Shown: one piece after another, positions 44,661-64,000 of the stretch
How the letters are laid out: each line of letters begins with the position of its first letter
Position numbering within the stretch: position 1 is the stretch's first letter
Assembly: GCA_964539655.1 (NCBI GenBank)
Contig: CAZIJH010000002.1
Span: forward strand, 80,813 to 144,812
Reading direction: 5' to 3'
From: an uncultured archaeon
GTDB taxonomy: Archaea; Aenigmatarchaeota; Aenigmatarchaeia; CG10238-14; SCSR01
Length of the DNA stretch: 64,000 bases
Program-made: the position numbers and the translations under genes
The notes under the pieces: generated by a model
Seen by the model: only the letters and a program-made list of their open reading frames with translations
What the model was told of the DNA's origin: nothing
The model's database searches: none

Positions 44661-45356
44661 TTATCCTTCTTTTTTCATCTTCTGCACGACGTCTCCGAGA
44701 CCGCGCACGGATTCAATCAGCGCCGGAAGAGTTTCCTTGAAAGCCCTCTCCAGGCTCCCGACTCTCGACCCGATGTCGTTGACGGTGTCGTTGAAATTCT
44801 CTATCCTGTTCGCGACTTCGTGCGATTCGGATTTGCCCTGAGAAATCTGCACAATCTTTTCGTTCACAGAATTTATTTTCCCGTCAAGCTCGTTGATCTT
44901 CTTTTCCATGTCTCCTATTTTGTCCGAGAATTCGGACACTCTTGCCTGAACTATGTAATCAATGTAATCTTCCGTCGGATATTGCGCGGAATAATCTTCG
45001 GGCAGAGAAGTTTCCGGAATCTGCGGCATCAATTCGTTAATGTCCGGCTGCTGCTCTTTCTGCGGAAGTTGCGGAAGCTGGGGAGCCGCTGACATTTGAG
45101 GAGCCTGATAAGGAGTCGGTTGCGGCGCTGAAGCCGTCTGATGCTGCTCACCGCTCACTCCGATCTGCAGAGCCTGCGTCAATGCCTTGTCTATTTCCTC
45201 GGGAGAAAAACCGTCCCTTCTCAAAACGTCTATCATCTCCGGCTCGGAAAATCCGCGCGATGCGAGCTCTCTCACGCGGTCGACCGGAACCATTCCCTTT
45301 CCTTGGATGACTCCGGGAGACTTTTTTTTCATAAAAGGAAGCTCGAGATCCATCAA
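44661..45356 (-). CDS. Coiled-coil protein with Q/P-rich linker (possible FlaC-like pilus/archaellum accessory protein)
   Basis: N-terminal small helical domain (VDRVRELASRGFSEPEMIDVLRRDGFSPEEIDKAL), a Q/P-rich linker (APQPTPYQAPQMSAAPQLPQLPQKEQQP), and a C-terminal coiled coil (MEKKINELDGKINSVNEKIVQISQ...). Lies next to the pilus ATPase. Confidence 0.4.
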   Translation of the reverse strand: MMDLELPFMKKKSPGVIQGKGMVPVDRVRELASRGFSEPEMIDVLRRDGFSPEEIDKALTQALQIGVSGEQHQTASAPQPTPYQAPQMSAAPQLPQLPQKEQQPDINELMPQIPETSLPEDYSAQYPTEDYIDYIVQARVSEFSDKIGDMEKKINELDGKINSVNEKIVQISQGKSESHEVANRIENFNDTVNDIGSRVGSLERAFKETLPALIESVRGLGDVVQKMKKEG

Positions 45357-45410
45357 ATCACAATAAACTAATTTTCTTTTTGAGCTATATTAAAACTACG
45401 TTTTTAGTTT

Positions 45411-45806
45411 TCAAGTTCTTCTCGGCCTGCTGGCGGATTCCTCGATTTCCTTCTTTGTTTCCTCCTTCGTCGCCAGACCTGAAGTAAGAGGGTTCATCAG
45501 GCTGATGTAGGATTCAAGCTCCCTTATGTCGTTCTTCGCGACTTTCTTGCTGAGGTCGCCGACGATTTTCGAAATCTCCGCCTCGATGACCACTAGCCTA
45601 TCCAAAATATTCTTCACGCTTTCAGAAAGCTTGTCAATGCTGGCTTTGGTTTCAGACGTGTGGCTGCTTGTCTGCTCCTCGAGCGAGGCCATGCTCATCT
45701 CAATCCTGTCGATCCTCTGCTCCATCACCCTGATTCTCCGCGCGTCCTCGTTTATCCTTTTCACGATTTCGCTCGTCAGCACGCGTATGTCCGCAGTCTC
45801 TACCAT
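45411..45806 (-). CDS. Coiled-coil protein divergent from the pilus ATPase
   Basis: ATG at 45806 (MVETADIRVLTSEIVKRINEDARRIRVMEQRIDRIEMSMASLEEQ...). A TTG at 45839 would extend it by 11 aa. Heptad-like pattern throughout. Confidence 0.45.
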   Translation of the reverse strand: MVETADIRVLTSEIVKRINEDARRIRVMEQRIDRIEMSMASLEEQTSSHTSETKASIDKLSESVKNILDRLVVIEAEISKIVGDLSKKVAKNDIRELESYISLMNPLTSGLATKEETKKEIEESASRPRRT

Positions 45807-45862
45807 GAAAACCAGACCATAAGTAATATTTGCCGTCAACAGCAGATAAATTATATTCAGAT

Positions 45863-48097
45863 ATGGCAGTAGAGTACGAAGTTCTTGACGGCGCGCTGAG
45901 GATAAACGCGGCGAACTGGGCCATAGCCCCGAGCATAGAAGATTCAGAAGCTGCGATGGCGATAGTCATCGACAAACTGCGCGAAGTGAAAGACGTCAAC
46001 AGGATAGTTTTGATCGAGTCGAGGGAGAACGAGTACGATTTCGAGCAGACGCAGATGCTGATTGAAATATCGAGAATTTACGACAGGATCATAAACCAGG
46101 ACAAAATTTTGAGCATCAACAATCTCGGGGACAAGGGATGCGAGACGCACATTCCGCACAGGCTCGCCGAACTGCAGTTCCTCGTGCTCGAAGTCCTGAG
46201 AAAAGATCCGATTGGAGCGTACGTAAGGATAAACACTTTGATTAACGCGACGAAAAAAAACGTGCACATGGACATGAGCCACCAGACGTGCCATTACAAT
46301 TATCTGATGTACGGACTCGAGCCGATAAGATTTTTGCTCGAAAATACTTTGCTGATACAGCGCGTCCTTCCGAGAATTGGAAATTTCAAATTCGGAGACA
46401 GGAGCCTTTACAGGGAAATTTTTTCGCCGGTCGTCAGGCCGAACTTCATGCTCACGAGATACATGGCGATGCCCCCGAAAATGGGAAAGACGATCGAGAA
46501 ATACAATGTCGGAAACACTCTTGTCGAAATTTTCCAAGTCCCGGGAAAAGTCAGGAACATCTATCACGTCACTCCGCGCGAATTCATGCTGAGCGAGGAA
46601 AAATATTCGGTGCTCGATTCCGCAAGAAGATACCTCACCGCGCACAAGCCGAGCGAGCAGGAATCGGTCGAGGTGGAAAAATCCCGAGAAATTTTCATGA
46701 ACATCGGAAGAGATTTGATACGCGACCTGTCCGGAAATTCGCGGATGCAGATGACAACTCAGGAGATAGAGGAGCTGGCCGCGATACTTTCCAGATACAC
46801 TGCGGGTTTCGGAGTTTTGGAGATTTTGCTGGCGGACGAAAAAGTGCAGGACATTTATGTGAATTCGCCGATCGGCACTTCGCCGATCTACATTTTCCAC
46901 CAAGATTACGAGGAATGCGAGACAAATCTTATTCCGACAAAAGAGGATGCGGAATCTTGGGCAACCAGATTCAGATTGTTTTCCGGAAGGCCGCTCGACG
47001 AGGCTAATCCCGTCCTCGATACTGAATTGAATCTCGCAGTCGGACGAGCAAGAGTCGCAGCGATAACAAGAACACTTTCTCCAGAAGGTCTCGCGTTCGC
47101 ATTCAGGAGACACAGGGAAAGACCCTGGACATTCCCACTTTTCATGAAGGCAAATTACATAGATCCGATGTACGCCGGACTGATGAGCTTCATAATCGAC
47201 GGAGGAAGATCGATACTTATCGCGGGCGGAAGGAGCAGCGGAAAAACTTCCCTGCTTGGAGCGATGATGCTCGAAATTCTGCGCAAGTTCAGAATAGTTG
47301 TCAGTGAGGACACCTTGGAGTTACCTGTCGTTGCGTTGAGGGAATTAAATTATAATATCGAAAGATTGAAATCGCGCTCGGTAATCACTCGAGTAGAAAC
47401 AGAACTTCCGCCAGAGGAGGCGCTGAGGACAGCATTGCGTCTCGGAGATTCAGCATTGATCGTCGGAGAAGTCCGTTCCACGGAATCAGTCGCGCTTTTT
47501 GAGGCGATGAGAATCGGAGCGCTCGCGCATGTGGTCGCGGGAACGATCCACGGAGAATCGCCGTACGGAGTTTTCGACAGGGTCGTGAACGATCTCGGAG
47601 TGAAGCCGACAAGCTTCAAGGCAATTGACATAATCAACATCGCGAATCTTCTGCGCTCGCCAGACGGACTTCATAGATTCAGAAGAGTGACCGAAGTAAC
47701 GGAAGTTAGGAAGAAATGGAAAACTGATCCGGCAGACGAAGGAGGATTTGTGCAGCTCTTGCAATATTCTGCGCACGAAGACAGAATGAAACCAACAGAC
47801 ACCTTAATTGATGGTGAATCCGAAGTGCTGAACGAGATTTCAAAACAGGTAAGGGATTGGAGAGGTTCATGGGATCTTGTCTGGGAAAATATTTTGCTGA
47901 GGTCTAAAATAAAACAGTCGATTGTTGATTATTCGCGCGACCTTGCGAGGCCCGATATACTTGAAGCGGAGATTTCGGTTGAATCGAACGAGATGTTCCA
48001 CATAATTTCCGAGCAGGTCAGGAGGGAAGTCGGATCGCTGGATTCAAAAATAATTTACGAAAAATGGCTCGAGTGGTTCAAGTCGAGAATAAAATAA
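45863..48097 (+). CDS. Type II/IV secretion-family ATPase (archaeal FlaI/PilB-like) with long N-terminal extension
   Basis: Walker A IAGGRSSGKTSLLGAMM, Asp box VSEDTLEL, Walker B ALIVGEVRSTE, His box AGTIHGES. ATG at 45863 within ORF 45830..48097. Walker A sits about 455 aa from the start. Confidence 0.9.
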   Translation: MAVEYEVLDGALRINAANWAIAPSIEDSEAAMAIVIDKLREVKDVNRIVLIESRENEYDFEQTQMLIEISRIYDRIINQDKILSINNLGDKGCETHIPHRLAELQFLVLEVLRKDPIGAYVRINTLINATKKNVHMDMSHQTCHYNYLMYGLEPIRFLLENTLLIQRVLPRIGNFKFGDRSLYREIFSPVVRPNFMLTRYMAMPPKMGKTIEKYNVGNTLVEIFQVPGKVRNIYHVTPREFMLSEEKYSVLDSARRYLTAHKPSEQESVEVEKSREIFMNIGRDLIRDLSGNSRMQMTTQEIEELAAILSRYTAGFGVLEILLADEKVQDIYVNSPIGTSPIYIFHQDYEECETNLIPTKEDAESWATRFRLFSGRPLDEANPVLDTELNLAVGRARVAAITRTLSPEGLAFAFRRHRERPWTFPLFMKANYIDPMYAGLMSFIIDGGRSILIAGGRSSGKTSLLGAMMLEILRKFRIVVSEDTLELPVVALRELNYNIERLKSRSVITRVETELPPEEALRTALRLGDSALIVGEVRSTESVALFEAMRIGALAHVVAGTIHGESPYGVFDRVVNDLGVKPTSFKAIDIINIANLLRSPDGLHRFRRVTEVTEVRKKWKTDPADEGGFVQLLQYSAHEDRMKPTDTLIDGESEVLNEISKQVRDWRGSWDLVWENILLRSKIKQSIVDYSRDLARPDILEAEISVESNEMFHIISEQVRREVGSLDSKIIYEKWLEWFKSRIK

Positions 48098-48150: not shown

Positions 48151-50100
48151 TTGACAGAATCCAAAGAATACAGGCAGTATCTGACAGCCGAGGTGCAGAA
48201 GCCAAAGCCCACTTGGTATGAAAATCTGGTCAATTCGTTTGGGAAAATTCCGATAACATTTCCTGTTGACAAGGATGCCGAGAAAAGAATAACAGAACAA
48301 GCCAGCTTCATCGGCTACGAAATAAAGCCATCGTCAATCTACATCACTTCCATTTTCATTTTTATATTGGCGCTTGTTGCGTCTGTCGCGACCCTTTTCT
48401 ACACCGGTTCGATGCTCGCACTGCTCGTCGGGATAATGGGAGGCGCAGGACTTGCGTACTACATCTATTCGTATCTTCCGAACCAGCTTGCGTTCACGAG
48501 AATCAGAGCGACGTCAGACCTCCTGCTGTCAGTACTTTACATGGTCATATCTCTGCGAATAACTCCTAACTTGGAGAACGCTCTCGTATTCGCATCCGTC
48601 AACGTGGGCGGAATCGTGGGAAGGGACCTGAAAAAAATAGCGTGGGACATGTCGCTCGGAAAATACAAGACGGGCGACGATGCGCTAGAAATTTTTGCAA
48701 GAAAATGGAAACAGGAAAACAACGAGTTTTCCGAAGCGATCGACATAATCAGAACGTCTTCTTTCAAGGCCGAGAGCGAAAGGCTGAAAATGTACGAGGA
48801 AGCTGTCAACGTAATTTTGGAGAGGAACACTGACAGGATGAAGACCTACAGCGCGGAGCTCAACAATCCGGTCAACATTATAAATTATCTGGGAATCACT
48901 CTTCCTGTACTGACAATAATTCTTTTTCCTGTGATGACCATTTTCCTTTCGCAGTCAATCCGGGCAGAGCTGCTCGTTCTGATCTATAATGTAGCACTCC
49001 CGCTCATCGTCTACTGGATGATGATGGAAACTTTGAAAAAGCGCCCGATAAGTTTCGGAGTGGTCGACATATCGACGCATCCAGATGCGTACAAGATCGG
49101 CACTTACAAAATCAAAAATAAAATCATTCCGCTGCTTCCGATTTCGATCGCCGTCTCGATATCACTGATCGCATTAGGATATTTCATCATCCAATCCGAA
49201 GAGAGCATGATATCGCTGAGCAAAATAATCGGAGGCCTTGTCGTCATCTGGGGGATTGCTGCAGGGATAATAATCTATTCGTACTTCTCGTACAGAAAAA
49301 ACATCAAGATAAAGGAAGATATCATCATAACCGAAAACGAATTCACCGAAGCCCTTTACGAGCTCGGATTAATTCTGTCTTCAGGATATTCCGTTGAGAC
49401 ATCGATAGAAAAGCTGCTGACAAAAATAAGAAATCTCAAAATTTCATTTCTGTTCACGAAGACTCTGAACAACGTCAAAGAATTCGGAATGACTATACAG
49501 AAGGCGATCTTCGACCAGAACGAAGGCGTGATAAAATATTATCCATCGAAGCTGATAAAAAACATACTGCAGATTTTTGTAGAATCGCTTAACAGAGGAT
49601 CGAAGACCACGGCAGTCGCAATGATGTCGGTTTCCGGCTATCTCAAATCAATCAAGCGCGTAGAGGAGTATCTCAAGGAAATCCTGCAGGAGACCACGAG
49701 CGAGATGCAGTTCATGCTAGCCATACTCGTGCCTGTCGCAACCGCTATAATCGTTGCGATAGCAGGACTGCTCACTTCGGTGCTCGTCCAGACATCAATG
49801 TTCCTTGCGACACTCACGGGGCTTTCCAGCAATCCGATATTTTCGCAGCAGAACACGCTCGGCTCGCTTGTCGACGTGACTCGCATAGTTCCAATACAAT
49901 GGTTCGTCCTCATAGTCGGCGGTTACATGCTCGAAGTTATATTAACGCTCGCGATTTTCCTCGCAGCGCTGAAACACGGAGACGACCCGCTGGAGAAGCA
50001 TAAGCTCATCGCGAACGGACTATTCAGAGGGATGCTGATATTCACCGTGATATCTCTCATAACTTTCGTAACATTCAACGGATTGGTGAAGATAGGATGA
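48151..50100 (+). CDS. FlaJ/TadC/PilC-like polytopic platform protein of a type IV pilus-like machine
   Basis: 649 aa with clusters of TM helices alternating with two cytoplasmic helical domains (the GspF-like duplicated architecture). Lies immediately downstream of the ATPase. TTG start. Confidence 0.7.
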   Translation: MTESKEYRQYLTAEVQKPKPTWYENLVNSFGKIPITFPVDKDAEKRITEQASFIGYEIKPSSIYITSIFIFILALVASVATLFYTGSMLALLVGIMGGAGLAYYIYSYLPNQLAFTRIRATSDLLLSVLYMVISLRITPNLENALVFASVNVGGIVGRDLKKIAWDMSLGKYKTGDDALEIFARKWKQENNEFSEAIDIIRTSSFKAESERLKMYEEAVNVILERNTDRMKTYSAELNNPVNIINYLGITLPVLTIILFPVMTIFLSQSIRAELLVLIYNVALPLIVYWMMMETLKKRPISFGVVDISTHPDAYKIGTYKIKNKIIPLLPISIAVSISLIALGYFIIQSEESMISLSKIIGGLVVIWGIAAGIIIYSYFSYRKNIKIKEDIIITENEFTEALYELGLILSSGYSVETSIEKLLTKIRNLKISFLFTKTLNNVKEFGMTIQKAIFDQNEGVIKYYPSKLIKNILQIFVESLNRGSKTTAVAMMSVSGYLKSIKRVEEYLKEILQETTSEMQFMLAILVPVATAIIVAIAGLLTSVLVQTSMFLATLTGLSSNPIFSQQNTLGSLVDVTRIVPIQWFVLIVGGYMLEVILTLAIFLAALKHGDDPLEKHKLIANGLFRGMLIFTVISLITFVTFNGLVKIG

Positions 50101-50318
50101 AGAAAAAAGAAAAAGGGCTCAGCATAGTCAGCGAGAAGATGGCCTTTCTGATAATTCTGGTAATCATTGTAATGTTTCTGCTCGTGTGGCTTGGTCTCGG
50201 GCAAACGCTGATCAATTACATCAGCGGAGAAAAGCTGGAGAGCACTGTGCAGACATGCGAACAGTTAGGGACAACCACGTTCGATCCCGAAGATCCCACA
50301 AAGAAGATATGCACTTAA
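50097..50318 (+). CDS. Pilin-like protein with class III signal peptide
   Basis: MKKKEKG-LSIVSEKMAFLIILVIIVMFLLVWL: a basic N-terminus, a KG motif, then a hydrophobic helix. ATGA overlap with the platform gene. Confidence 0.55.
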   Translation: MKKKEKGLSIVSEKMAFLIILVIIVMFLLVWLGLGQTLINYISGEKLESTVQTCEQLGTTTFDPEDPTKKICT

Positions 50319-50343: not shown

Positions 50344-50529
50344 ATGACAAAAAAGGCTGCTGTAAGTTTTCCAATGACGGTGGTAGTGTCTATTGTGATA
50401 ATTTTGGTTATATTGGTTCTCGTCTTCATGTTAGTCGAAAATGTGGGGGATCTCCTTATAAAGGGATTCAGCAACGTAATCAAACAAGGCACATTGTTTG
50501 TTGGGGGACTTTTGGGTCCTCTGGGCTAA
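50344..50529 (+). CDS. Small pilin-like/TM protein
   Basis: MTKKAAVSFPMTVVVSIVIILVILVLVFMLV... 61 aa with a single N-terminal hydrophobic helix. Confidence 0.4.
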   Translation: MTKKAAVSFPMTVVVSIVIILVILVLVFMLVENVGDLLIKGFSNVIKQGTLFVGGLLGPLG

Positions 50530-50570: not shown

Positions 50571-50726
50571 ATGTCTGACGCAGTAAAAATGATAGTGAGC
50601 ATAGCAATAATTGTTGTCGCGCTTGCAGTGATTATCTGGTATCTTCTGACGAATTACAACAGCGTAACAAGTCAATTTTATCTGTATCTCGGAAGCGCGT
50701 TCTCGAACATGTTTTGGAAACCTTAA
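50571..50726 (+). CDS. Small pilin-like/TM protein (51 aa, below ORF-track cutoff)
   Basis: My translation is MSDAVKMIVSIAIIVVALAVIIWYLLTNYNSVTSQFYLYLGSAFSNMFWKP*. Same strand and spacing as the neighbouring pilin-like ORFs. Confidence 0.35.
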   Translation: MSDAVKMIVSIAIIVVALAVIIWYLLTNYNSVTSQFYLYLGSAFSNMFWKP

Positions 50727-50763: not shown

Positions 50764-53577
50764 ATGTTCGCCGTTTCAAAAGGCCTTGCTATCGGACTTA
50801 TAGTCAAACTTGCTATCGGAATAATTGTAATCGCTGTCGCGCTTTCAATTTTCGGAAACGGCCTGCCCGGCATTTCCATACCTACTAAATGCAACGACAA
50901 AACTGGAATAGCTCTAAGCTCAGTCGAAGCACTCAAATGCGGAATCGACATGGCCGCCACGCAGTCCCTGTCAGTCGCTAGCTGCACAGGAAAATCAGAT
51001 TCGCAAAGCCAAGATATCATGAGTAAATTCGTATTCAGAAGTGCCAGCGAGCAGACAGGTGGATGCAAAAGAACTGACACAGGCGCAAGTCAGATTTATG
51101 CGAAGTTCGCATGCACAAACAAAAATTCATGCGTTCCAAAAGACGTCGAATGCAAAAGGACTTCGATAAATGACAAATGGTCATGCAGGGTTCTGGAATT
51201 CGAGCTGCCTCAAAGCCAGACGTTCAGAGACATGTTGAAAGCCATTGGATTGAACAACGTCGCAGAAGCTAACGAATTTATTTCGGAATGGATAGGCGCA
51301 GTCGGGCAGCCAGACTTTGTTCTCTCGTACGAATACTTCCCGTCGGAAAGCAGGGTTCTTTTCACGCGCGAAAACAAGGAGATATCATCGGTGATGGCCA
51401 GCGTTGCGCTTGGCGGGCTTCTGAATCTTGCGCCGGGCGGAGGATCGAAAATATCCGCGACTAAAAACGGACTGAAAAATATTCCGAAAAATATAATCGC
51501 GCTTTTCAAGAAAGACACTTATGTCGGGCTGAAAGGAAAGCTGTTCGAGAATTTTGCATCGAAGGCAGGAGTCAAGGCTTTGGAAGAATTAACGGCTGCG
51601 CGTCTCGTGTCTACATATGCGACTGCGGAAGGAATCGAAGAAATAGTTGGTAAAAATGTCGTCAAGCAAATTTTGAAAAAAGAGAACGTGAAGAAATTTA
51701 CAAACGATGTCAAGAAATTAATTTTGGAAAAGATGCCAGATGGAGCCGAGAAAAACCACTTGGAGATAACTTTGGACAACAGGTTCGATTATTTCTGGTC
51801 AGGAGTTTTTGAAAAATACATCAAAACATGCAGAGATATTCCGAGCACGTGCACGCCAGACGACGACTTTGTCGTGAAAGAAATGATGGATTTCGTGAAG
51901 ATTTCAGACCTGGGAATTCCAAATTCAGTTGCTGACGACGTCGCAAAACAAGTCCCATCAATCGCTTCTGCGAAAACAGCCACTGACGACATAAAAATTA
52001 TTTCAGGAGAGTTTTCCAAATCAGGCAATCTTCTTGACAGTGCTCTGAAACCAGAGTTGGCCGCGCAGCTCAAGCAAAACTTGGACGACCTGGCAATGCA
52101 GAGTCTGCTCGACAAAAGCATGGCGCAGTCCGCCAAGAAATACAAAAATGTCCAACAGTTCCAAGAAGTCCTGAGCAAGATGGACCAAAAGGCGGAAAGA
52201 ATTTCGGAAATTGCCTACAAAGATCTGCTGACCAAGCTGCATACGGCCGACAAGCATTCAGGGCTCTCGCTGAAAGGACAGTTCATCGGAAGGCTTGAAA
52301 AATCCTTGAAGCTTTTGGACGAAGGAACGTTGGAAGGACTGGAAGACAAGAGCACGAAGGACGCAGCGAAAAGTCTTGTGAAGAAAGCATTGACAGAGAA
52401 GGCGCCGATGCTGCTGAAGGGATTGACGGGCCTGCCTGCAGATTTGGAGCCAAAGGAAACTTCGGAAAGATTAATTTTGATGGCAGCGGTGTACATACTT
52501 TCTTACAATTCTATCGTTGACGACACGAACGAAGCTCTGCACAAGACCTGCGGAGGGAACACGCTCTGCCTCATGACAAACAAGCTTCTGCTTTCCGGAG
52601 AAGAAAATTATTGGGAAAGTTACGAGTTGAAAAAGGACAGCGACGTGTTCGTCTCGTCCAAAGTCTCGTCAATAAATCTCGACGGCGAGGAATTCGAAAG
52701 GGCGTACGCGTTGAGCCCGTGCAAAGCGAATGTCGACATATCTTTGAGCAAAGACCAGAAATGCAACGGCGCGCTGAAAACAAGCGAAAATATTTATTAC
52801 GAGATAAGGGACTTCTGGTGCTACGTGTACTATCCGAACGACGCTAACAAGTATTCTACCGATGACTATTCGTTCTGTCTCGACGAGACAAAAAGATTCG
52901 CAGAAACATGTTTGGATCAGTCACAAGGACTTCTGAAGCTGGTCACGAATTCCTGCGCCGGCCAGAAAGATAAGAAAGGTCCGATCGAATCTTTCGAAGA
53001 AGACGAGTCTAAGAACAATTTAGTCGACGGAAAAGTTTTCAGCATCTCGTTCGCAGACTGCAAGAAAAAATACAACACTGACGACATATTCAAATGCGTG
53101 AACGACGATTCGCTTGACAAAATAGACGACGTGAAAAAACAGTTGAAGAGCGACTGGTCAGCTAATCAGTACAATTTAATTTTGAAGCAGACAAATTTCC
53201 GGGCAGTCCCGATTAACATCCAGAAGGACGTAAACGGAAATCTGGTGACAGTCTCTGATTGCAGTTCTCCTTACTTCGCGCAAGAAATCGTGGGCGGAGT
53301 GAAAAGCGTAGACACGGTCACGCTAAGGTTCAACGACATTTTGAAATTCAAAGAGAAAGGCACGGATCCCAACTACTGCGTGCTTAGCAAATCGAAGATG
53401 TCAGATTGGGGCAAGCTTGGATGCCAGGTTGGAACAGTCGCAGGTTCGCTCGCGACAACATTCTTCACAACAGGAGCAACATCGCAAGTAACGTTGTATA
53501 TGATTGGCTCTAGCGGAGTGGTCTGCGATCAGATTCTTGACAATACCGAAAGCAGATGGCCGAATACCCAGCAGTAA
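50764..53577 (+). CDS. Large (937 aa) Cys-rich extracellular protein with pilin-like N-terminus (candidate pilus-associated adhesin)
   Basis: MFAVSKG-LAIGLIVKLAIGIIVIAVALSIF is followed by a long hydrophilic region with many Cys (e.g. TKCNDK, LKCGID, SCTGKSD, GGCKRTD, FACTNKNSCVPKDVECKRT). A hydrophobic C-terminal stretch (LGCQVGTVAGSLATTFFTTGATSQVTLYMIGSSGVV) is present. Confidence 0.55.
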   Translation: MFAVSKGLAIGLIVKLAIGIIVIAVALSIFGNGLPGISIPTKCNDKTGIALSSVEALKCGIDMAATQSLSVASCTGKSDSQSQDIMSKFVFRSASEQTGGCKRTDTGASQIYAKFACTNKNSCVPKDVECKRTSINDKWSCRVLEFELPQSQTFRDMLKAIGLNNVAEANEFISEWIGAVGQPDFVLSYEYFPSESRVLFTRENKEISSVMASVALGGLLNLAPGGGSKISATKNGLKNIPKNIIALFKKDTYVGLKGKLFENFASKAGVKALEELTAARLVSTYATAEGIEEIVGKNVVKQILKKENVKKFTNDVKKLILEKMPDGAEKNHLEITLDNRFDYFWSGVFEKYIKTCRDIPSTCTPDDDFVVKEMMDFVKISDLGIPNSVADDVAKQVPSIASAKTATDDIKIISGEFSKSGNLLDSALKPELAAQLKQNLDDLAMQSLLDKSMAQSAKKYKNVQQFQEVLSKMDQKAERISEIAYKDLLTKLHTADKHSGLSLKGQFIGRLEKSLKLLDEGTLEGLEDKSTKDAAKSLVKKALTEKAPMLLKGLTGLPADLEPKETSERLILMAAVYILSYNSIVDDTNEALHKTCGGNTLCLMTNKLLLSGEENYWESYELKKDSDVFVSSKVSSINLDGEEFERAYALSPCKANVDISLSKDQKCNGALKTSENIYYEIRDFWCYVYYPNDANKYSTDDYSFCLDETKRFAETCLDQSQGLLKLVTNSCAGQKDKKGPIESFEEDESKNNLVDGKVFSISFADCKKKYNTDDIFKCVNDDSLDKIDDVKKQLKSDWSANQYNLILKQTNFRAVPINIQKDVNGNLVTVSDCSSPYFAQEIVGGVKSVDTVTLRFNDILKFKEKGTDPNYCVLSKSKMSDWGKLGCQVGTVAGSLATTFFTTGATSQVTLYMIGSSGVVCDQILDNTESRWPNTQQ

Positions 53578-57722: not shown

Positions 57723-58858
57723 AAGGGATAATACATGCATTGGTTGCACTCGGGCTGATTTTCGTAGTCTGGATACTCATACTCAGCTTCGCATTCAATC
57801 TTACTTCGATTACGCAGAGGCAGCTTGCTGAATCCAAGACTCTCACGGATGCGGAAGAAGCCGAGAATATCGTGCGCTCGATAGAAAATTCTTTCAAGCT
57901 TTCGTTTATCCAAGGGACATACGACTCGTTGAATACCGGAGACTATTGGGCGAGCTACGACAAAGATTTGTTGACAGATTCGGCCATCCAAAACATAAAG
58001 TCTGGATCTGCGATCAAATCCAGTTTTGAAAGTTACGCGAACGCTTTCCTGCAAAAATATCCGGAATACGTTCAGAGCACCAAGCCTGAAAATACTTTTT
58101 TGATAAGTTCGCTGAAAGATTCGAAAATTGATACGGCGGTTTCGGTGGATGCAAACAGGGTTTCGGCAACTGCAAAGCCTGTAAAAATTTCGTCGAAATA
58201 CAGGAACGTTGAAATAAGAACTGCAATTGATTTTGAATATAGCATTGAGGCGCACATAATCAGGCTAATCGATGTTGCAAAACAATTTACTTCAAGCAAA
58301 TCTTTCAACAGCGCTGTTGACAGTTCGATACCTTCTAAGACTTCTTATTCGCAAACATACTGCGCAGACGAAAGCGAGCCGAGCTCAGGCGATGTATACC
58401 AATCCGGTACAGGAAAATCAATTGACCAGACCATGAATGAAATAGGACAGTCGATAAAATCAAATCTTGAAAGTTTGCAGGACGAATATACAACAGAGAA
58501 CCAGCAGATATTCTCAATTGAAAATCTCCAAATTAACTCGGGAGCGAAAGGCATAACAACGCGCATTGACGCAGACTGCGATGTCAGCGAATCTGGAACC
58601 TGTTGCAAATTACAGTACATGAAAGACGCAAACGGAAATCAAGTTTATGATGCTCTCGGCCAGCCCGCATGGGACTGCGTGCCGCGAGGTTTGGAATACA
58701 CCAAGACATGCACTTACACATCTTATGCGAAGGCCGATTCCAGAATTCGCGTGAAGGAATGGAGCGGAAACAAGTACGCACTTTGGGACATGCACGACGG
58801 CAAAATGGTATTCGACACGATGGGAATTTCGTTCAACGCAGTCGGCGGAAACAGCTGA
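57719..58858 (+). CDS. Pilin-like protein with class III signal peptide (380 aa)
   Basis: The ATG at 57719 overlaps the upstream stop (ATGA): MKG-IIHALVALGLIFVVWILILSF. The long ectodomain has late Cys residues (DADCDVSESGTCCKLQ...WDCVP...KTCTY). Confidence 0.55.
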   Translation: MKGIIHALVALGLIFVVWILILSFAFNLTSITQRQLAESKTLTDAEEAENIVRSIENSFKLSFIQGTYDSLNTGDYWASYDKDLLTDSAIQNIKSGSAIKSSFESYANAFLQKYPEYVQSTKPENTFLISSLKDSKIDTAVSVDANRVSATAKPVKISSKYRNVEIRTAIDFEYSIEAHIIRLIDVAKQFTSSKSFNSAVDSSIPSKTSYSQTYCADESEPSSGDVYQSGTGKSIDQTMNEIGQSIKSNLESLQDEYTTENQQIFSIENLQINSGAKGITTRIDADCDVSESGTCCKLQYMKDANGNQVYDALGQPAWDCVPRGLEYTKTCTYTSYAKADSRIRVKEWSGNKYALWDMHDGKMVFDTMGISFNAVGGNS

Positions 58859-58915: not shown

Positions 58916-59212
58916 ATGGACAGAAAAGGTCTTGCAGTCTCCCAGATAGTTCTTCTCGTTTTGGGGATACTTGTTCTGGCAGTCGTTGCTTATTTGTTAT
59001 ACACTAACTTCATCTCTTCTCAGAGCGGCTTTGATGTGAACAAATGCAAGGCTGCGCTGATATCTGCATGCACGAGCTGGAAGGTAAGCGGTTTCTCGCC
59101 CGCGTCTGCCCCGCCATGGCCGTCCGCTTGCGGCACTGGAGTCAAGGACTTTGGATCTCCTGACCGCGAAAAAATTGGTAGAGCTTCGTGTACAAGCGTT
59201 GGTGTAATTTAA
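58916..59212 (+). CDS. Pilin candidate (class III signal peptide), paralogue of 53961
   Basis: ATG at 58916: MDRKG-LAVSQIVLLVLGILVLAVVAYLLYTN, then a Cys-rich part (CKAALISACTSW...SACGTG...ASCTS). Confidence 0.65.
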   Translation: MDRKGLAVSQIVLLVLGILVLAVVAYLLYTNFISSQSGFDVNKCKAALISACTSWKVSGFSPASAPPWPSACGTGVKDFGSPDREKIGRASCTSVGVI

Positions 59213-59223
59213 TTTTTTGTTTT

Positions 59224-60339
59224 CTAAAACGCCCACATTCCTCTTACGAACATAGATAAGAAAATTACGAACAGCGTCAGCGAGAAAAATACAAATATGT
59301 AATGCAGCCATTGCCTGCTCTCGCTTATCTTTGACATGATGATGAACATCGGAAACAATGTAAGAAGATATCTCGGCGTGCCCAGCCAAAATGAATTGAA
59401 CGTCACGATGAAAAGAGCGACGATCATGTAAATGGCATAAGAGACCCTGAGATATTTCAACGCAAGAATTCCGGAAACCAGTCCAATTATACCCGCGAAC
59501 ATCTCGCTGTATCCTATCATCAAATTCTCATTTGGGCTCCTGGTTTGCGAATTGATGAATGAGTTTTTCAGTCCTTCCCAGAACGGCGCGACATCACGGT
59601 GGAAATAGCCGCCCTGCACCCCTATGAATTCAAATGGATCGCCGAAAATCTGGTAATTGATGAAGGCGTAGAAAATCAATCCCAACGGGATTATCATGAG
59701 CCAAATAAAATCTTTCCTGACATTTTTTAATTTGAATTTCTTCTGATGAAGGTATTCGAATACTAATCCTGCAAAAAGTGCGACGCTTGTAATTCTTACC
59801 AGTGACGAGAACATCCCAAGTATTCCCGACAGCATCCAGTTTCCTTTTCTAGCGTAGTAGAAGCTGGGAATTGCGAACGCCAGGAAAAGGCTTTCAGTGT
59901 AGCCCGTGTGGAAAAAATACGCGGTTGGAAATATCGACAAAAAGAGGACGGCGTTTGTCGCGACATTGTCGCCGCCTTTCTCAAACATGACTAGCTTGTA
60001 CAAATAGAAGCATGCGACAGCGAACGCAAGATTGGAAATTATTAACGCCGCCAGCATCGAGTTGTCGACAAATATCACAAGGAAGCTGATGAGAGACGGC
60101 AGAAGAGGAAACACTGCGATTAAAGACGGGTCTTTTGCCACGCTTGGAAAGTATCCACCATCCGCAACGATAAGATACCTGATCACGTCCCATTGGTTGA
60201 ACAAATCGAGAACAGATGCCTTCGAATTCGTCAGAGTCTCGTAGGAAAATTGCGCTATGAAGAACGTGCCGAAAGTCGCGATAAAAATTATCGCAATAAT
60301 TTTTTTGTACTTTAGAATTTGCTTTGCGAAAAAATTCAT
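59224..60339 (-). CDS. GT-C membrane glycosyltransferase, PIG-V/mannosyltransferase-like
   Basis: 371 aa, polytopic. The N-terminal loop motif WDVIRYLIVADGGYF...AVFPLLPSL resembles the PIG-V family pattern WD..hYl.IA..GY...faFfPl.P. Confidence 0.5.
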   Translation of the reverse strand: MNFFAKQILKYKKIIAIIFIATFGTFFIAQFSYETLTNSKASVLDLFNQWDVIRYLIVADGGYFPSVAKDPSLIAVFPLLPSLISFLVIFVDNSMLAALIISNLAFAVACFYLYKLVMFEKGGDNVATNAVLFLSIFPTAYFFHTGYTESLFLAFAIPSFYYARKGNWMLSGILGMFSSLVRITSVALFAGLVFEYLHQKKFKLKNVRKDFIWLMIIPLGLIFYAFINYQIFGDPFEFIGVQGGYFHRDVAPFWEGLKNSFINSQTRSPNENLMIGYSEMFAGIIGLVSGILALKYLRVSYAIYMIVALFIVTFNSFWLGTPRYLLTLFPMFIIMSKISESRQWLHYIFVFFSLTLFVIFLSMFVRGMWAF

Positions 60340-60351
60340 GTAAGTCCTACT

Positions 60352-60648
60352 TCATTTCAGAATTTCTGTGCATTTGTCTACTGTTGGCCTGACATCCAGA
60401 TCGGAGCATCCTCTAGCAAAACTGTCCCATGTTCCAGGTTGATTTCTTGTATTTGTGGAATCCCTGCTGTAACCTTCTATACTCCACTGAGTACAATATG
60501 AAAATAATTTGTTCTGACAATCCCTAAGTGCTATAGCAGAATTCGTCCGATTATCCTTAATTAAAAAGTTGTAGGCGAGTGCAGCGATGACAACAATTGC
60601 GATCAAAATCAAAATGAAGATCGTGCCCGAAGAGGCAGGCTGTCCCAT
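60352..60648 (-). CDS. Pilin-like protein, related to 53961/58916
   Basis: MGQPASSG-TIFILILIAIVVIAALAYNFL, then a Cys-containing part (CQNKLFSYCTQW...ARGCSDLDVRPTVDKC). Confidence 0.5.
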   Translation of the reverse strand: MGQPASSGTIFILILIAIVVIAALAYNFLIKDNRTNSAIALRDCQNKLFSYCTQWSIEGYSRDSTNTRNQPGTWDSFARGCSDLDVRPTVDKCTEILK

Positions 60649-60699
60649 AAAATTTACTTGATTTTAGAAATATATATATAAAAATTTAATTTACATTTG

Positions 60700-62073
60700 A
60701 TGAAATCGTCCAATTTTGCAATCTTGTTTGTTTCGTTTGCAATCGTGGGATTTTCAATACTATTGTTTTCAAATTTGACAATAGCACAGAAGCCGGGATC
60801 TTGCCAAGTCAACGGTGTGAGTTATTGCAGCGAAGTCGATGACGAAGCATCATCTGGCCAGTCTCCTGATGGATGTTACTGCGATTCGTTGTCAGTGTTG
60901 CCAAATTACAATGATTATTGTGAGGACATAGATACTGTATGCGGAATAGCAAAACCTGTTAAGAATTCGGTTCAGTCTTATCCATATCCTTACCCGTATC
61001 CAACAAAACAATATCCACCGTCTTCTGTCATCTCAAATTTACCAGAAGAGTGTGAAAATTTCGGTTCTCCGTCTGACAATTATTGCGATGACAGTCCTGA
61101 AAATTGCGCGTCCGGATATGTTGAAGAATCCTCTGTGCCGGAGTGCAAGGAATGTTCTACTGGAAAATGGAAGAATTGCAAAAGTTCTGGATCAGTCGCG
61201 CCGCCGTCCGACACATCCTCGTGCTCTTCGAGAACGACCTGCTCCGAATGCGTGAAAGGGAACAAAGTTTACGATGACGATGCTGTTGTAAATTGCGGAT
61301 GGGATAAAGACGTCAAAAAATGCAAGTCTGGAAGTGCGTCATCTTCTTACGACGGAGTCTACGGAGCTGACAAGTGGGCTTGGATGGGCTCATTGTGCGT
61401 AGAGGGAAATGTTCCAAAGTCAAGTCAGAAAACTCAAATATCGACTAACAAGCTGTTTTATGAACAAGGCGAAAAAGTCGTAGTTAGCGGAAAAATAGTT
61501 GCAGGCACGTTCACCATATCAATCTACAATCCCGTAGGAACAATCGGTGCAATTTCGCAAGGAACAACTTCCGCAAATGGCACATACCAGTTGGAAGTTG
61601 GGACTGTCGGAAAACCCGAAATAACTAAACTCGGGATGCTGGGGAGATATACCGTGAAAGTACAGCCTGTTTCCGATTTGAACAATTACAATATTACTTT
61701 TGATGTCGTGCCAGTCGGCAAGTCTTCTTCGTTCAAGAAAATCTACACGGGCGTGAAAAGCCTGATCACGAGGTTAAATTTGGACGAAACGATAAAAGTT
61801 GCGGCTGCAGATGACGGCACAGAATATTTGGTAACATTGTTGGTCACGAATTTCGGACCGACTATAAGAGTCGAGAGCACATCGTCTGCGCAGAACATCG
61901 ACGGCTTGCCGCAGGACCGCTACTTGGAACAAACACCTGCAAGTAATTATGGAACGATTGTTTTAGACGGGAATGATAATATAGATCCAGTGAAAACTAA
62001 AGCCTTGCTCATCTTCGTTCCTGTTCATAAAACCGATGGATTATGGGCAGAAGCAGTGATAACCCCAGTTTAA
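60700..62073 (+). CDS. Secreted Cys-rich protein with YP repeat, PSI-like module and beta-rich C-terminal domains
   Basis: Signal-like N-terminus MKSSNFAILFVSFAIVGFSILLFSNLTIAQ. Contains SYPYPYPYPTKQYPP, CSSRTTCSECVKGNKVYDDDAVVNCGWDKDVKKCKSG, and an Ig-like-looking stretch (LFYEQGEKVVVSGKIVAGTFTISIYNPVG...YTVKVQP). Confidence 0.5.
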   Translation: MKSSNFAILFVSFAIVGFSILLFSNLTIAQKPGSCQVNGVSYCSEVDDEASSGQSPDGCYCDSLSVLPNYNDYCEDIDTVCGIAKPVKNSVQSYPYPYPYPTKQYPPSSVISNLPEECENFGSPSDNYCDDSPENCASGYVEESSVPECKECSTGKWKNCKSSGSVAPPSDTSSCSSRTTCSECVKGNKVYDDDAVVNCGWDKDVKKCKSGSASSSYDGVYGADKWAWMGSLCVEGNVPKSSQKTQISTNKLFYEQGEKVVVSGKIVAGTFTISIYNPVGTIGAISQGTTSANGTYQLEVGTVGKPEITKLGMLGRYTVKVQPVSDLNNYNITFDVVPVGKSSSFKKIYTGVKSLITRLNLDETIKVAAADDGTEYLVTLLVTNFGPTIRVESTSSAQNIDGLPQDRYLEQTPASNYGTIVLDGNDNIDPVKTKALLIFVPVHKTDGLWAEAVITPV

Positions 62074-62097
62074 AAATATTTTATTTCAGAAAATTTT

Positions 62098-63999
62098 TCA
62101 ATTTATGCTTTCATCCATCACTTCAGTTGTTGCTGGAGTAGATGTACTTGCAATCGCATATTCTTCCGAATCAGTCGAAATGCTAAATTCAATTTCGTTC
62201 TCCGAGTTCCTGCTTTTCACCTGGCATGCAAGAACGTTTGATTCATCAGTTTTCAGTCCAGCAAGCTTCGCGCAGTAATCGTAGCTGCTTCCCTCGACGC
62301 ATCCGCTCTTCGGATCCTTTTTTCCCAACTCATGGAGTCCGTTGACGTCATTGATCTGCGGAATCGCAGCACCGTTAAGATAGCATGCGGCGCCATCCCT
62401 GCTCGCGACGTTGAAATACATGCTGTCTTTCATAGACTCGTCGGTGACGAACACCTGCCTGTAAAATCTCGAGCATCCTGCGCAGTTTCCGCTGTCCGGA
62501 AGCTCTGTGGTCGTCCATCCAATGTCGTCATAATTAGAAGACTTCCAATCATTGTCGTCTGTCTTTTCCGGCTCGTTCGATCCTTCGACCTGCAAAGTCT
62601 TCCATCCGGTCGTAGGGATTTCGCACGTGAGGACTTCGTCCACTTCGACTGCTTGACCTTCTCTTGCTATCTGATAAGTGTAATCGGCCGTGGCTTCGAA
62701 GCTGTATGTCGATACATCTTCCAAGTCGAAAGACGATGAGCCTGCCAAATTTTCCGCTCCGAACGAGCAGACTATATTATTACTCTGCTGGTTTTTGCCA
62801 AGAGTTGATACGAATCTCGGGATTTCTATTTTCTCGGATTGTGTTCCTTGTGGAGTTTTGACTTCGCCCGCATATGGTCCGACGCATCCTTGGAACGTAA
62901 GATAATTTCCTTTAAGCTGCAGCGGGGGATTTTGCTTGAGCGTCACAGAATTTATTTTCGCGTCGCCTGTCCCCGAATTCCTGATCACTATGGTCACAGA
63001 AATTTCCGCGTCCCTGTCAAAAGCGAAATCTTTCGGCCTTGGAATGACATCGAGTTTTATCGGGCCAGGGAACGTTATCGGATTCTGCACGGTAGGAGCG
63101 CTGGTTGTGCTGTCCTTCCTCAGACTTATTCTGGCTTCTCCGAACGCGTCATAGTCGTAGGAGAAAACTGCCCTGGGCTTGAACCCCTTTGTAACGCAGC
63201 TGAGAGGAATGAAAGCCGTTATCTCCAACGGAAATATTGACGGACCTATTTCTGATGCAACTTCTTCGCTGAGTCCCAACTTTATTCTGTCCGTGCGGCT
63301 GTCAACCGAAATGCCTTTCAGTTCCGTGACTTTGCTCGAATCGTAGTACATCATGAACTTCGGATTTTTCACCGGAGAAATTTCTTCGCACTTGTTGATT
63401 CCGGCTTCGCTTCTGCAATACTCCTTCCCTTCGGGCGTATCGATCGTAACGGACGCGACAGCCTTCTTCACGCCCATTGTCTCCAGTTCGAGCGAGGTGA
63501 TGCTGTAACAATTGGTGCATCCTATCTCGTCGGCCTTGTCAGTGACCAAAAACTTTTTGCAGTCGTCCCACGCCTTTGTCGGAGAATAAGCCTGCTGCTG
63601 TATGACTTCCGAAGGCACGAAAGATTTTCCGAACCAGCATCCGGTCTGTGTTCCCAAATATTTGAGAGGAACACCTCCTATGAAATCACTGTCCGCAACA
63701 GACTGCAGAGCCGGCGCCACATACATTTCTGCCTGCCTCTCTACATAATTGGACACAGGAGTGTCTATGGCACCAGGCAAATTTCCTTTGATTCCGAAAG
63801 CTTCTGGCATAGCTGGTGCAAGACCAAAAATGTAAATAAGAATTATTCCAATTAGGATAGTGAATTTAAATTTCGATGCGTTCTCTTTTATGGTGCCTGC
63901 CTTTTCTTTTGTACTTCCCCATTTCTCCTTCAGGGCATCATACGTTATGGCATCACGTTTTTCTTTCAGTTTTTGCCTGATATCGTCAAGTTTCCCCAT
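62098..63999 (-). CDS. Large N-terminally anchored surface protein (633 aa), putative adhesin with beta-sandwich/jelly-roll-like domains
   Basis: Charged N-terminus, one TM (FKFTILIGIILIYIFGLAP), then a Cys-containing ectodomain. A CARDB-like stretch (EISVTIVIRNSGTGDAKINSVTLKQ) and a C-terminal segment (DDNDWKSSNYDDIGWTTTELP...FYRQVFV...FNVASRDGAACYLNG) resemble galactose-binding-like jelly rolls. Confidence 0.5.
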   Translation of the reverse strand: MGKLDDIRQKLKEKRDAITYDALKEKWGSTKEKAGTIKENASKFKFTILIGIILIYIFGLAPAMPEAFGIKGNLPGAIDTPVSNYVERQAEMYVAPALQSVADSDFIGGVPLKYLGTQTGCWFGKSFVPSEVIQQQAYSPTKAWDDCKKFLVTDKADEIGCTNCYSITSLELETMGVKKAVASVTIDTPEGKEYCRSEAGINKCEEISPVKNPKFMMYYDSSKVTELKGISVDSRTDRIKLGLSEEVASEIGPSIFPLEITAFIPLSCVTKGFKPRAVFSYDYDAFGEARISLRKDSTTSAPTVQNPITFPGPIKLDVIPRPKDFAFDRDAEISVTIVIRNSGTGDAKINSVTLKQNPPLQLKGNYLTFQGCVGPYAGEVKTPQGTQSEKIEIPRFVSTLGKNQQSNNIVCSFGAENLAGSSSFDLEDVSTYSFEATADYTYQIAREGQAVEVDEVLTCEIPTTGWKTLQVEGSNEPEKTDDNDWKSSNYDDIGWTTTELPDSGNCAGCSRFYRQVFVTDESMKDSMYFNVASRDGAACYLNGAAIPQINDVNGLHELGKKDPKSGCVEGSSYDYCAKLAGLKTDESNVLACQVKSRNSENEIEFSISTDSEEYAIASTSTPATTEVMDESIN

Positions 64000-64000
64000 T

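Follow-up and report, generated by a model that had tools for sequence, protein, structure and literature searches.

A probable type IV filament locus with a long array of pilin-like genes in an uncultured Aenigmatarchaeota archaeon

Does a secretion ATPase gene followed by a platform gene and a long run of open reading frames (ORFs) with N-terminal hydrophobic helices encode a surface filament, a device for secretion or uptake, or a set of membrane-anchored proteins that stand beside the motor genes by chance? This question is raised by positions 44661 to 64000 of the stretch of DNA analysed here, a 64-kb piece of contig CAZIJH010000002.1 from an uncultured archaeon, which in its full length is referred to as the window. 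The archaeon belongs to the Aenigmatarchaeota (DPANN), and the locus is considered likely to encode a machine that builds a type IV filament (pilus). An initial annotation, made from the sequence alone, had described the ATPase, the platform protein, 13 same-strand ORFs with N-terminal helices and one more on the opposite strand, and this content was reproduced by ORF listing and analysis of the N-termini. Its sizes of 51–937 amino acids (aa) and its frequent overlaps of stops and starts were likewise confirmed from the ORF listing.

On the plus strand the secretion ATPase gene (45863–48097) and the platform gene (48151–50100) are followed by 13 consecutive N-terminal-helix ORFs, that is, ORFs whose first 35 residues include a hydrophobic stretch of ~20. 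They begin at 50097, 50344, 50571, 50764, 53623, 53961, 54289, 54703, 55214, 55666, 57117, 57698 and 58862, are 51–937 aa long, and in each the ~20-residue hydrophobic stretch is preceded by a short polar leader. A fourteenth N-terminal-helix ORF lies on the minus strand (60352–60648). Stops and starts overlap or abut at 50097/50100, 54702/54703, 55666/55666, 57117/57120 and 57719/57722. Among control ORFs in related loci 110 of 471 (23%) had such a helix, and from this rate our own arithmetic gives a chance of ~5e-9 for finding 13 out of 13.

The related loci were obtained by scanning one genome per species for relatives of the ATPase. At least 557 matching loci were found, and 80 were retained; nearly all of these are metagenome-assembled genomes (MAGs) of Aenigmatarchaeota, with a few labelled Nanoarchaeota or Nanohaloarchaea. 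Identity of the ATPase across the relatives retained from these at least 557 species genomes was 52–89%. The closest relative (L001/L082), with an ATPase 89% identical to that of the window, contains all 13 array genes in unchanged order. The genes between 59224 and 62073 (GT371, p98c and s458) are missing from it, and the homologue of the surface protein gene s633 lies there directly 3′ of the array; the conserved array therefore ends at 59212. The extent given in the initial annotation thus needed correction at both ends, as it included 59224–62073 and missed both the role of an upstream coiled-coil pair and a linked membrane-protein family at 37083–39348. In the closest relative a 215-aa gene and a ParE-type toxin–antitoxin pair are inserted between the ATPase and platform genes, and a 253-aa opposite-strand gene is inserted after the homologue of the giant pilin-like gene p937, so the operon evidently tolerates insertions.

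The genes of the motor and the array are given below, with matches to hidden Markov models (HMMs) of the protein families F0 to F7 that are introduced further on. An arrow marks the putative cleavage site, and percentages are identities to the counterpart in the closest relative.

45863–48097, plus strand: ATPase for assembly of a type IV filament, member of the GspE/FlaI/TadA superfamily; 744 aa, with a ~290-aa N-terminal and a ~100-aa helical C-terminal extension.
48151–50100, plus strand: platform protein, divergent member of the T2SSF/TadC/FlaJ family, 649 aa, ~8 transmembrane segments, two cytoplasmic domains.
50097–50318, plus strand: p73, very small pilin-like protein, MKKKEKG↓LSIVSEK..., 2 Cys, start overlapping the platform stop; fits the strict class III-type pattern; 55%, beginning MKG↓LEIV in the relative.
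50344–50529, plus strand: p61, very small pilin-like protein of family F4 (HMM 8e-6), possible site KKA↓AVSF; 51%.
50571–50726, plus strand: p51, 51-aa single-helix membrane protein without recognisable cleavage motif; 39%, also a 51-aa ORF in the relative.
50764–53577, plus strand: p937, giant pilin-like protein, MFAVSKG↓LAIG..., 24 Cys, no N-X-S/T sequon; 44%.
53623–53925, plus strand: p100, bitopic, its helix placed right at the N-terminus, with 6 Cys and lacking a cleavage motif; 54%, also 6 Cys.
53961–54251, plus strand: p96, small Cys-rich pilin of family F0 (HMM 6.8e-15), MLSSEQKG↓SLAITQIVLL....
54289–54702, plus strand: p137, bitopic, with an N-terminal helix and 2 Cys but lacking a canonical cleavage motif; 36%.
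54703–55185, plus strand: p160, bitopic, with an N-terminal helix and 6 Cys but lacking a canonical cleavage motif; 47%.
55214–55666, plus strand: p150, family F3 (HMM 2.5e-7), degenerate motif; 63%.
55666–57120, plus strand: p484, a large protein, bitopic, with 14 Cys and without sequons; weak relation to F1 (HMM 1.4e-7); 43%, also 14 Cys.
57117–57722, plus strand: p201, pilin-like by analysis of its N-terminus, MTNMEKKKKG↓IGSIFF...; 47%, reading ...SKKG↓IATIMF in the relative.
57719–58858, plus strand: p386, large pilin-like protein of family F2 (HMM 3.8e-15), MKG↓IIHALVALG..., true product 379 aa.
58916–59212, plus strand: p98b, second small Cys-rich F0 pilin (HMM 1.5e-17), MDRKG↓LAVSQIVLL..., last conserved array gene; fits the strict class III-type pattern; 68% over 57 residues, beginning MDKKG↓IAVSQ in the relative.
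60352–60648, minus strand: p98c, third small Cys-rich pilin paralogue of the F0 family (F0 HMM 2.9e-12, F5 HMM 1.4e-12), MGQPASSG↓TIF..., 4 Cys, no basic residue at −2; missing from the relative.

The ATPase ORF spans 45830–48097, and its start is probably at 45863, as the protein is 744 aa long in all homologues. It matched T2SSE in Pfam (3e-13), and in the PDB the best match was the Archaeoglobus GspE (afGspE) structure 2oap (2e-26), followed by CpaF/TadA (1.6e-18), FlaI (3e-13), VirB11 (5e-6) and then PilT. Against NCBIfam the TadA family scored 124 bits and FlaI (NF058587) 114 bits, both far below the trusted cut-offs, which for the FlaI equivalog is 550 bits; VirB11 and TrbB scored 54–60 bits. 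An alignment of 26 sequences showed the Walker A motif G455-G-R-S-S-G-K461-T-S, the Asp box D483-T-x-E486, the Walker B region G535-E-x-R538 and the His box H563-G to be invariant. No VirB4, VirD4 or relaxase-type genes were found in the window. On these scores, and with no conjugation genes in the window, a non-filament secretion ATPase of the VirB11/TrbB type was rejected. The enzyme is of the filament kind, nearest to archaeal GspE, CpaF/TadA and FlaI and far from VirB11/TrbB, in agreement with the family named in the initial annotation. Among the best 120 homologues identity was 67–89%, and those that carry a name belong to Candidatus Aenigmatarchaeota. Four homologues (P0066, P0067, P0073 and P0112) are ~1260 aa long and contain an intein with a homing endonuclease inside the ATPase.

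The platform protein of the window had no match in Pfam, NCBIfam or the PDB, and none was obtained with a profile against the PDB. When 28 aligned orthologues (24–78% identical) were scanned one by one, 21 matched PF00482 T2SSF, with a best value of 2.3e-8. The protein is therefore assigned to the T2SSF family by transitive homology, and by this route the earlier FlaJ/TadC-like designation holds. Its gene directly follows the ATPase gene in 52–59 related loci.

The array was next to be judged by its leader peptides. The six x-K-G motifs reported ahead of the helix (EKG-LS, SKG-LA, QKG-SL, KKG-IG, MKG-II and RKG-LA) are all present. A strict FlaFind-type regular expression matched only p73 and p98b, and a looser motif was therefore adopted together with explicit controls, namely 110 N-terminal-helix ORFs from the upstream flanks of related loci. 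Starts of the form M.{0,6}[KR][GAS] were found in 112 of 192 downstream N-terminal-helix ORFs of other loci vs 14 of the 110 controls, and starts of the form M..KG in 59 of 192 vs 6 of 110, so that the K/R-G/A/S leader motif is enriched 4–6-fold (about 4.5-fold) over control N-terminal-helix ORFs. It is carried by 67 of the 77 members of families F0–F7. An acidic residue follows 4–8 positions past the motif in 18 of these 67, mainly in F7 (MSKG↓ALAIE), F3 and F1. Members of F1 mostly begin with KGQ, as do some F6 and F12 members of relatives; this N-terminus does not occur in the window proteins. Among F3 members of other lineages six of nine begin MK[GA]xxxx[DE]. The motif expected of class III signal peptides is strongly enriched across the orthologous loci, but within the window only six to eight of the 14 proteins have a plausible class III site.

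The family of p96, p98b and p98c (F0, ~96 aa) has at least 243 homologues, all of them unnamed and without Pfam domains. Of the families it has the most conserved N-terminus, K[GA]↓[IV]AVPYIIA...GYW.F, in which K7 is conserved, and there are four conserved cysteines. An AlphaFold model of p96 consists of one continuous helix of 53 residues (8–60) that begins right after K-G, followed by a small 4-Cys head with two disulfides. As modelled, the helix is much longer than a membrane anchor and equals in length that found at the N-terminus of bacterial type IV pilins. At the level of families, the members of the array appear for the most part to be pilins, and p96 with p98b and p98c is the best candidate for a major subunit.

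Two of the large array proteins were followed further. No Pfam, NCBIfam or PDB match was found for p937, and a search of 5.8 billion proteins gave a single homologue, which is 975 aa long, 44% identical and likewise contains 24 Cys. In most related loci the same position holds a large protein, drawn from families F7, F24, F32, F37 and F50, which mostly start MSK[GAS]; p937 is a candidate modular pilin or tip adhesin. For p386, alignment with the homologues starts only at residue 8 of the long ORF, and the counterpart in the closest relative begins MKGIVHAL. There were 24 representatives at E ≤ 1e-3 in 1.84 billion proteins, and its family F2 forms the last large array gene in many lineages. 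Residues 100–165 of the p386 ORF (57998–58192) match 11 repeated stretches in the 5750-aa protein P0245, and by sequence this part appears to be an extracellular module common to p386 and that giant surface protein.

By BLAST of the window proteins against the related loci, the ATPase, the platform protein and two proteins encoded upstream were each found in about 52–63 loci; the 13 array proteins were recognisable almost only in the closest relative. Array structure was compared in the 33 loci that have at least 6 kb of sequence downstream, and in most of them 8–12 same-strand N-terminal-helix ORFs follow the platform gene. Clustering of these gave a conserved order of families in one large clade, F4-F7-F0-F5-F3-F1-F6-F2, with sizes of ~60 aa (F4), 330–830 (F7), ~100 in one to three copies (F0), ~95 (F5), ~125 (F3), ~210 (F1), ~150 (F6) and 430–560 (F2). 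The family HMMs tie p96, p98b and p98c to F0 and F5, p61 to F4, p150 to F3, p386 to F2 and, weakly, p484 to F1. Independent gene calls on two long contigs showed the same layout, with no Pfam annotation on any array gene. Since most of the 33 loci have comparable arrays and all 13 genes recur in the closest relative, the locus is real and is the norm for Aenigmatarchaeota, not an oddity of one genome. It had initially been called much more complex than typical archaeal adhesion-pilus operons, which is only partly right: its layout is standard for the lineage and comparable with the 11-gene Epd cluster discussed below.

The rate of change differs along the locus. Between the window and its closest relative identity is 89% for the ATPase, 80% and 65% for the two coiled-coil proteins cc231 and cc142, 78% for the platform protein and 36–68% for the array proteins (44% for p937). 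This gradient fits an exposed fibre on a conserved motor. In the same comparison, of one pair only, the ATPase was more conserved than the neighbouring Trm5/TYW2-like (79%) and TP_methylase-family (73%) proteins encoded at 34947–36588.

The array proteins are also set apart by composition. Cysteine makes up 3.2% of their residues vs 0.9% in controls, and the number of cysteines is even in all 12 Cys-containing array proteins of the window. In other loci it is even in 130 of 151 Cys-containing array proteins (21 odd) vs 83 of 204 controls, and the counts in the closest relative are near-identical despite protein identities of 36–68%. This pattern points to disulfide-bonded extracellular domains. 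N-X-S/T sequons are scarce: the 14 window proteins contain 4 vs 25.0 ± 4.5 expected, a depletion of about 6-fold, and the array proteins of other loci contain 106 vs 288 ± 16 expected, as against 359 vs 376 expected in the upstream control ORFs. The ATPase and cc142 sets are also depleted (ratios of 0.49 and 0.52) and homologues are not independent samples, so part of the depletion may not reflect glycosylation. A gene for the oligosaccharyltransferase AglB lies in the same window as this sequon-poor array. To judge by composition, disulfides seem to take the place of N-glycans in stabilising the extracellular domains, which on an archaeal pilus would be unusual if confirmed.

No peptidase of family A24 was detected in the 64-kb window when every multi-pass membrane ORF was searched against Pfam, and a six-frame scan left no GxGDxK-type motif within any window ORF once two pattern matches had been dismissed, one in a stretch broken by stops and the other inside the 633-aa surface protein at 62098–63999. 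The absence of a prepilin peptidase from view, as first reported, is therefore borne out by both scans, and the Pfam annotation of the neighbourhoods of three relatives contained none either. The general archaeal peptidase PibD/FlaK is usually encoded elsewhere than the pilus locus (Makarova 2016, PMC4858521), so a locus that lacks it is unremarkable and uninformative on the genome as a whole.

Upstream of the ATPase gene, and on the opposite strand, lie genes that travel with the motor.

44661–45356, minus strand: cc231, cytoplasmic, with a three-helix domain at the N-terminus, a linker rich in P and Q, the motif PETSLP and a coiled coil.
45411–45839, minus strand: cc142, a small coiled-coil protein of the cytoplasm whose gene diverges from that of the ATPase; likely start 45806, giving ~131 aa.
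37083–39348, minus strand: family of small multi-pass membrane proteins, present as four paralogues in tandem (199, 192, 184 and 156 aa), with the N-terminal motif G-f-f-x-f-x-L-P-F...Y-G-L-L-x-K.

cc231 adjoins the ATPase region in 62 of 81 related loci, and cc142 is kept in 63 of the 81, always between cc231 and the ATPase. Neither protein has a hydrophobic segment or a cysteine. The C-terminal end of cc231 is strongly conserved (LEKAFKETLPALIESVR); the protein gave only sub-threshold coiled-coil matches (DUF7310, FlaC_arch and RecX_HTH1), and its profile found only generic coiled coils in the PDB. cc142 is 65% identical to a 129-aa protein of the closest relative and has weak coiled-coil Pfam matches only. 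Members of the small membrane family, which are ~160–210 aa long with five transmembrane segments and for which there is no Pfam family, occur in 41 related loci in one to six copies, in ~20 of them directly next to the cc231 gene. In the window a stretch of ~5 kb (39426–44634) parts them from the pilus core. Three of the four are 70–83% identical to their counterparts in L001 (2311–4589) and the fourth 31%. The family was also considered as the missing peptidase and rejected, since an alignment of 35 sequences showed no conserved Asp pair and no GxGD motif; it is probably an extra component of the pilus system. On a wider scale, the surroundings of the core (34947–45356 in the window) are syntenic among distant Aenigmatarchaeota: Peptidase_M50, Trm5/TYW2 and TP_methylase genes precede the small membrane-protein paralogues and the pilus core in the related loci L083 and L084.

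Several observations weigh against a pilus. The AlphaFold model of the ATPase, built from 26 close homologues, was poor (pLDDT, predicted local distance difference test, 57), particularly in the catalytic core, and confident only for residues 1–190 and 670–744; with this low-confidence model Foldseek ranked afGspE before FlaI, CpaF and PilT and did not place the N-terminal domain. The p96 model was of moderate confidence (mean pLDDT 70.7, head 50–70) and had no PDB match at E < 0.001 in Foldseek, a search to which a long helix with a small low-confidence head is ill-suited. The proteins p51, p100, p137, p160, p150 and p484 lack a cleavage motif, as do their orthologues in the closest relative. 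No known Pfam pilin family was matched by any array protein at E ≤ 1 or by 91 F0 members, among which such matches as PsbJ were dismissed as chance matches of a membrane helix. Neither DUF361 nor Class_IIIsignal was matched by the array proteins or the F0 members, and the array proteins gave nothing meaningful in Pfam (E ≤ 1), NCBIfam or PDB sequence searches. A motif scan within ±10 kb of the ATPase in the 81 related loci gave no convincing A24-like peptidase. Finally, no expression, filament or host data for the phylum were found in the literature searched.

The explanation that competes best with a pilus is a short pseudopilus-type device, similar to those of type II secretion, bindosomes or competence, which would span the periplasm as a piston or scaffold for the export of Cys-rich surface proteins or for the import of DNA or nutrients from a host. 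The same core of ATPase, platform and pilin-like proteins is established as serving secretion and uptake machines elsewhere (preprint 10.64898/2026.04.22.720090). The array offers many different pilin-like proteins with none clearly dominant, it is flanked by Cys-rich secreted proteins, and an ATPase more conserved (89%) than its housekeeping neighbours (73–79%) in the one pair compared would fit an essential uptake function in a reduced symbiont. However, neither the locus nor its surroundings yielded a substrate-binding-protein domain, a ComEC-like channel or a nuclease, and F0, with its strongly conserved N-terminal helix and its one to three tandem copies, resembles the major subunit of a filament. 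We consider a pseudopilus unlikely.

It is considerably less probable that the N-terminal helices are ordinary uncleaved signal anchors, and that the array consists of membrane-anchored surface proteins which by chance stand beside an ATPase and platform pair. The five or six window proteins without a cleavage motif, the two matches to the strict FlaFind-like pattern, the lack of a known pilin family and the lack of a peptidase gene nearby are all as this explanation would have them. Throughout the phylum, however, the array is strictly tied to the ATPase and platform genes and shares their orientation, the K/R-G/A/S motif is enriched over that in other N-terminal-helix ORFs and stands at the extreme N-terminus in nearly all members of eight families, and the helix modelled for F0 extends far beyond a membrane anchor.

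A reduced or divergent archaellum locus, the least probable of the alternatives, is suggested by the FlaG, FlaI, FlaJ and adjacent homologues listed in most Aenigmarchaeota MAGs (Li et al. 2021, PMC8407114), by homologues named 'flagellar protein FlaI' by JGI and by the weak FlaC_arch matches of the two coiled-coil proteins, but those matches are sub-threshold and of a kind that any coiled coil gives, the ATPase falls well short of the FlaI cut-off and is nearer to afGspE and TadA/CpaF, its long N- and C-terminal extensions contrast with the minimal archaellum ATPase (preprint 10.64898/2026.04.22.720090), and no archaellin, FlaF/G, FlaH or FlaX was matched in Pfam or NCBIfam by any protein of the locus, the array proteins being searched even at E ≤ 1. 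Nor is there a KaiC/FlaH-like gene in the locus, the RadA gene at 8087–9046 being an unrelated housekeeping gene. The absence of archaellum-specific genes had already been pointed out in the initial annotation and stands. The locus is not an archaellum; what it shares with one is the homologous ATPase and platform superfamilies and the presence of cytoplasmic coiled-coil accessory proteins by the motor genes. The listing of Li et al. probably refers to the present locus, and the analysis thus corrects an existing 'partial archaellum' annotation of these genes.

A pilus locus in a DPANN archaeon is in itself unsurprising. Of published accounts, the one that comes nearest concerns a generic DPANN 'dark-matter pilin island'; in it Makarova, Wolf and Koonin (2019, PMC6393860) read islands with an ATPase, TadC and dark-matter signal-peptide proteins as pilus loci. 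The present locus shares with these islands the ATPase and TadC-like platform followed by unannotated signal-peptide proteins, which are interpreted there as diverse pilins without detectable similarity to those of other archaea. That account gives a generic example with no analysis of families; here an order of about eight families, a coiled-coil pair, a membrane family and a cysteine and sequon signature are added.

In size and style the closest studied machine is the Epd cluster (system 1) of Methanococcus maripaludis, a system also reported from DPANN archaea, although two of its defining features are not found here. It is a large single-operon cluster of 11 genes with many pilin-like proteins and an adhesin-like component. 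Its major pilin is small and has a globular head that is slight or missing, KGQ starts as in the substrates of EppA recur in some family members here, and the best NCBIfam match of the ATPase, the TadA family, is a bacterial offshoot of the system 1 lineage. In system 1 there are two platform genes, and a dedicated EppA-type peptidase is encoded within the locus or close by, whereas the present locus has one 649-aa platform protein, as have 52 relatives, and no peptidase. It also lacks DUF361 or Class_IIIsignal matches, and coiled-coil partners are not described for system 1.

The coiled-coil partners may point to subclade 4F (and 4C) of the archaeal pilus systems. Subclade 4F has a unique cytoplasmic coiled-coil protein (arCOG07564), an S-layer- or adhesin-like protein and ATPases with extra N-terminal domains (PMC4858521), and its ATPase also occurs in 'nanoarchaea' without identified pilins (Makarova 2016, PMC4858521). 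Homologues of cc231 weakly match DUF7310, a coiled-coil family, which is a lead only. The pilins of 4F, however, belong to the euryarchaeal PilA family (arCOG02981/10216), which was not detected here, and its ATPase N-terminal domain is Cys-rich, whereas that of the window ATPase contains only 3 Cys.

With the bacterial Tad/Flp system and other minimal pilins (Flp, ComGC and Geobacter PilA) the locus shares a TadA/CpaF-like ATPase core, very small pilins (precursors of 51–98 aa) in which the N-terminal helix dominates and, in some members, an acidic residue past the cleavage site. It differs in its archaeal K-G leader in place of G↓xxxxEY, in a single two-domain platform in place of TadB and TadC, in the absence of a secretin or other Tad accessory proteins, and in the disulfide-rich mini-head, which is not a feature of Flp. 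In Saccharibacteria/Patescibacteria, type IV pili are conserved and have been shown to mediate host binding and twitching of these episymbionts (PMC9894109 and PMC11623550). The analogy to these ultrasmall host-dependent cells is functional only; their machinery is of the bacterial T4aP type, and there is no homology at the level of pilins. Within the literature searched, the conserved architecture of several families, the additional partners of the motor and the mini-pilins rich in disulfides and poor in sequons appear to be undescribed.

Three further genes lie at and beyond the end of the conserved array.

59224–60339, minus strand: GT371, GT-C-type membrane glycosyltransferase-like protein, 371 aa, ~7 transmembrane segments; lineage-specific, outside the conserved array.
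60697–62073, plus strand: s458, secreted Cys-rich protein with a Sec-type signal peptide, 18 Cys; link to the pilus uncertain.
62098–63999, minus strand: s633, surface protein with a type II membrane anchor and 16 Cys, its gene converging on the array and conserved as its 3′ neighbour.

GT371 has sub-threshold matches to PIG-V mannosyltransferase and LA_3751 glycosyltransferase. s458 has a weak SlaB-like NCBIfam match (25 bits vs a cut-off of 700) and no PDB match, and both are missing from the closest relative. There a 649-aa homologue of s633, 50% identical, directly follows the array; s633 itself has no family or PDB match. Elsewhere in the window is a set of protein-glycosylation genes, comprising a PMT_2-type mannosyltransferase fragment (1–702), AglB/STT3 (2738–5077) and GT4 glycosyltransferases (5699–6970 and 40166–41347), with ORFs at 694–1581 and 1578–2741 lying within it. 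A low-GC island at 14000–22000 (GC content 0.29–0.41 vs ~0.46 elsewhere) carries a C-5 cytosine DNA methylase (16493–17509) and an Mrr-type restriction endonuclease fused to TPR repeats (19609–21345), and probably represents defence DNA gained by horizontal transfer. An archaeal chromosome is in keeping with the genes for RadA, an RPA-like OB-fold protein, a DHH/RecJ-like protein, AglB/STT3 and tRNA-Leu.

If the locus encodes a pilus as proposed, the precursors would insert into the membrane with the N-terminus inside and the C-terminus outside, and a signal peptidase of class III that is encoded elsewhere would cut the K/R-G/A/S leader after G/A/S. The ATPase, docked on the platform, would then lift the subunits from the membrane into a helical fibre with the N-terminal helices as its core. 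The major subunit would most likely be the small Cys-rich F0 pilins (p96, p98b and p98c), or alternatively p73 and p61, which are tiny and Flp-like; among the pilin-like proteins the larger ones (p937, p484, p201 and p386) may form a priming or tip complex in which the hypervariable p937 would be the likely adhesin. The motif-less p51, p100, p137, p160 and p150 may remain in the membrane as alignment or anchoring parts and, by analogy, may as uncleaved bitopic components resemble PilN/PilO or FlaF/FlaG in function. The coiled-coil pair, and possibly the small multi-pass proteins, would be lineage-specific cytoplasmic and membrane partners of the motor. A more far-reaching form of the proposal, which we hold to be doubtful, is that of a phylum-wide, near-essential organelle of host interaction and a distinct branch of the type IV filaments. 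It would have small, all-helical, disulfide-stapled and non-glycosylated pilins, some seven further priming families, a hypervariable tip pilin for host specificity, its own coiled-coil pair and membrane partners known from no other pilus, and possibly a peptidase other than the classical kind linked to the locus.

The most probable role of the filament would be attachment to a host cell or surface, to judge from the DPANN lifestyle, the pattern of a conserved motor with a hypervariable tip, and the analogy with Saccharibacteria; the host-interaction fibre suggested in the initial annotation is plausible. To our knowledge, every cultured DPANN archaeon needs direct contact with a host cell for growth. 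No member of the Aenigmatarchaeota is in culture, and the cluster makes host attachment in this phylum directly testable. The F0 pilins and p937 are targets for antibodies, fluorescent tagging, metaproteomics and cryo-electron tomography, and the coiled-coil pair and the small membrane proteins are candidate new motor parts. The cluster is among the most conserved features of the lineage and its exposed parts evolve fast, which is the pattern expected of a host-recognition device.

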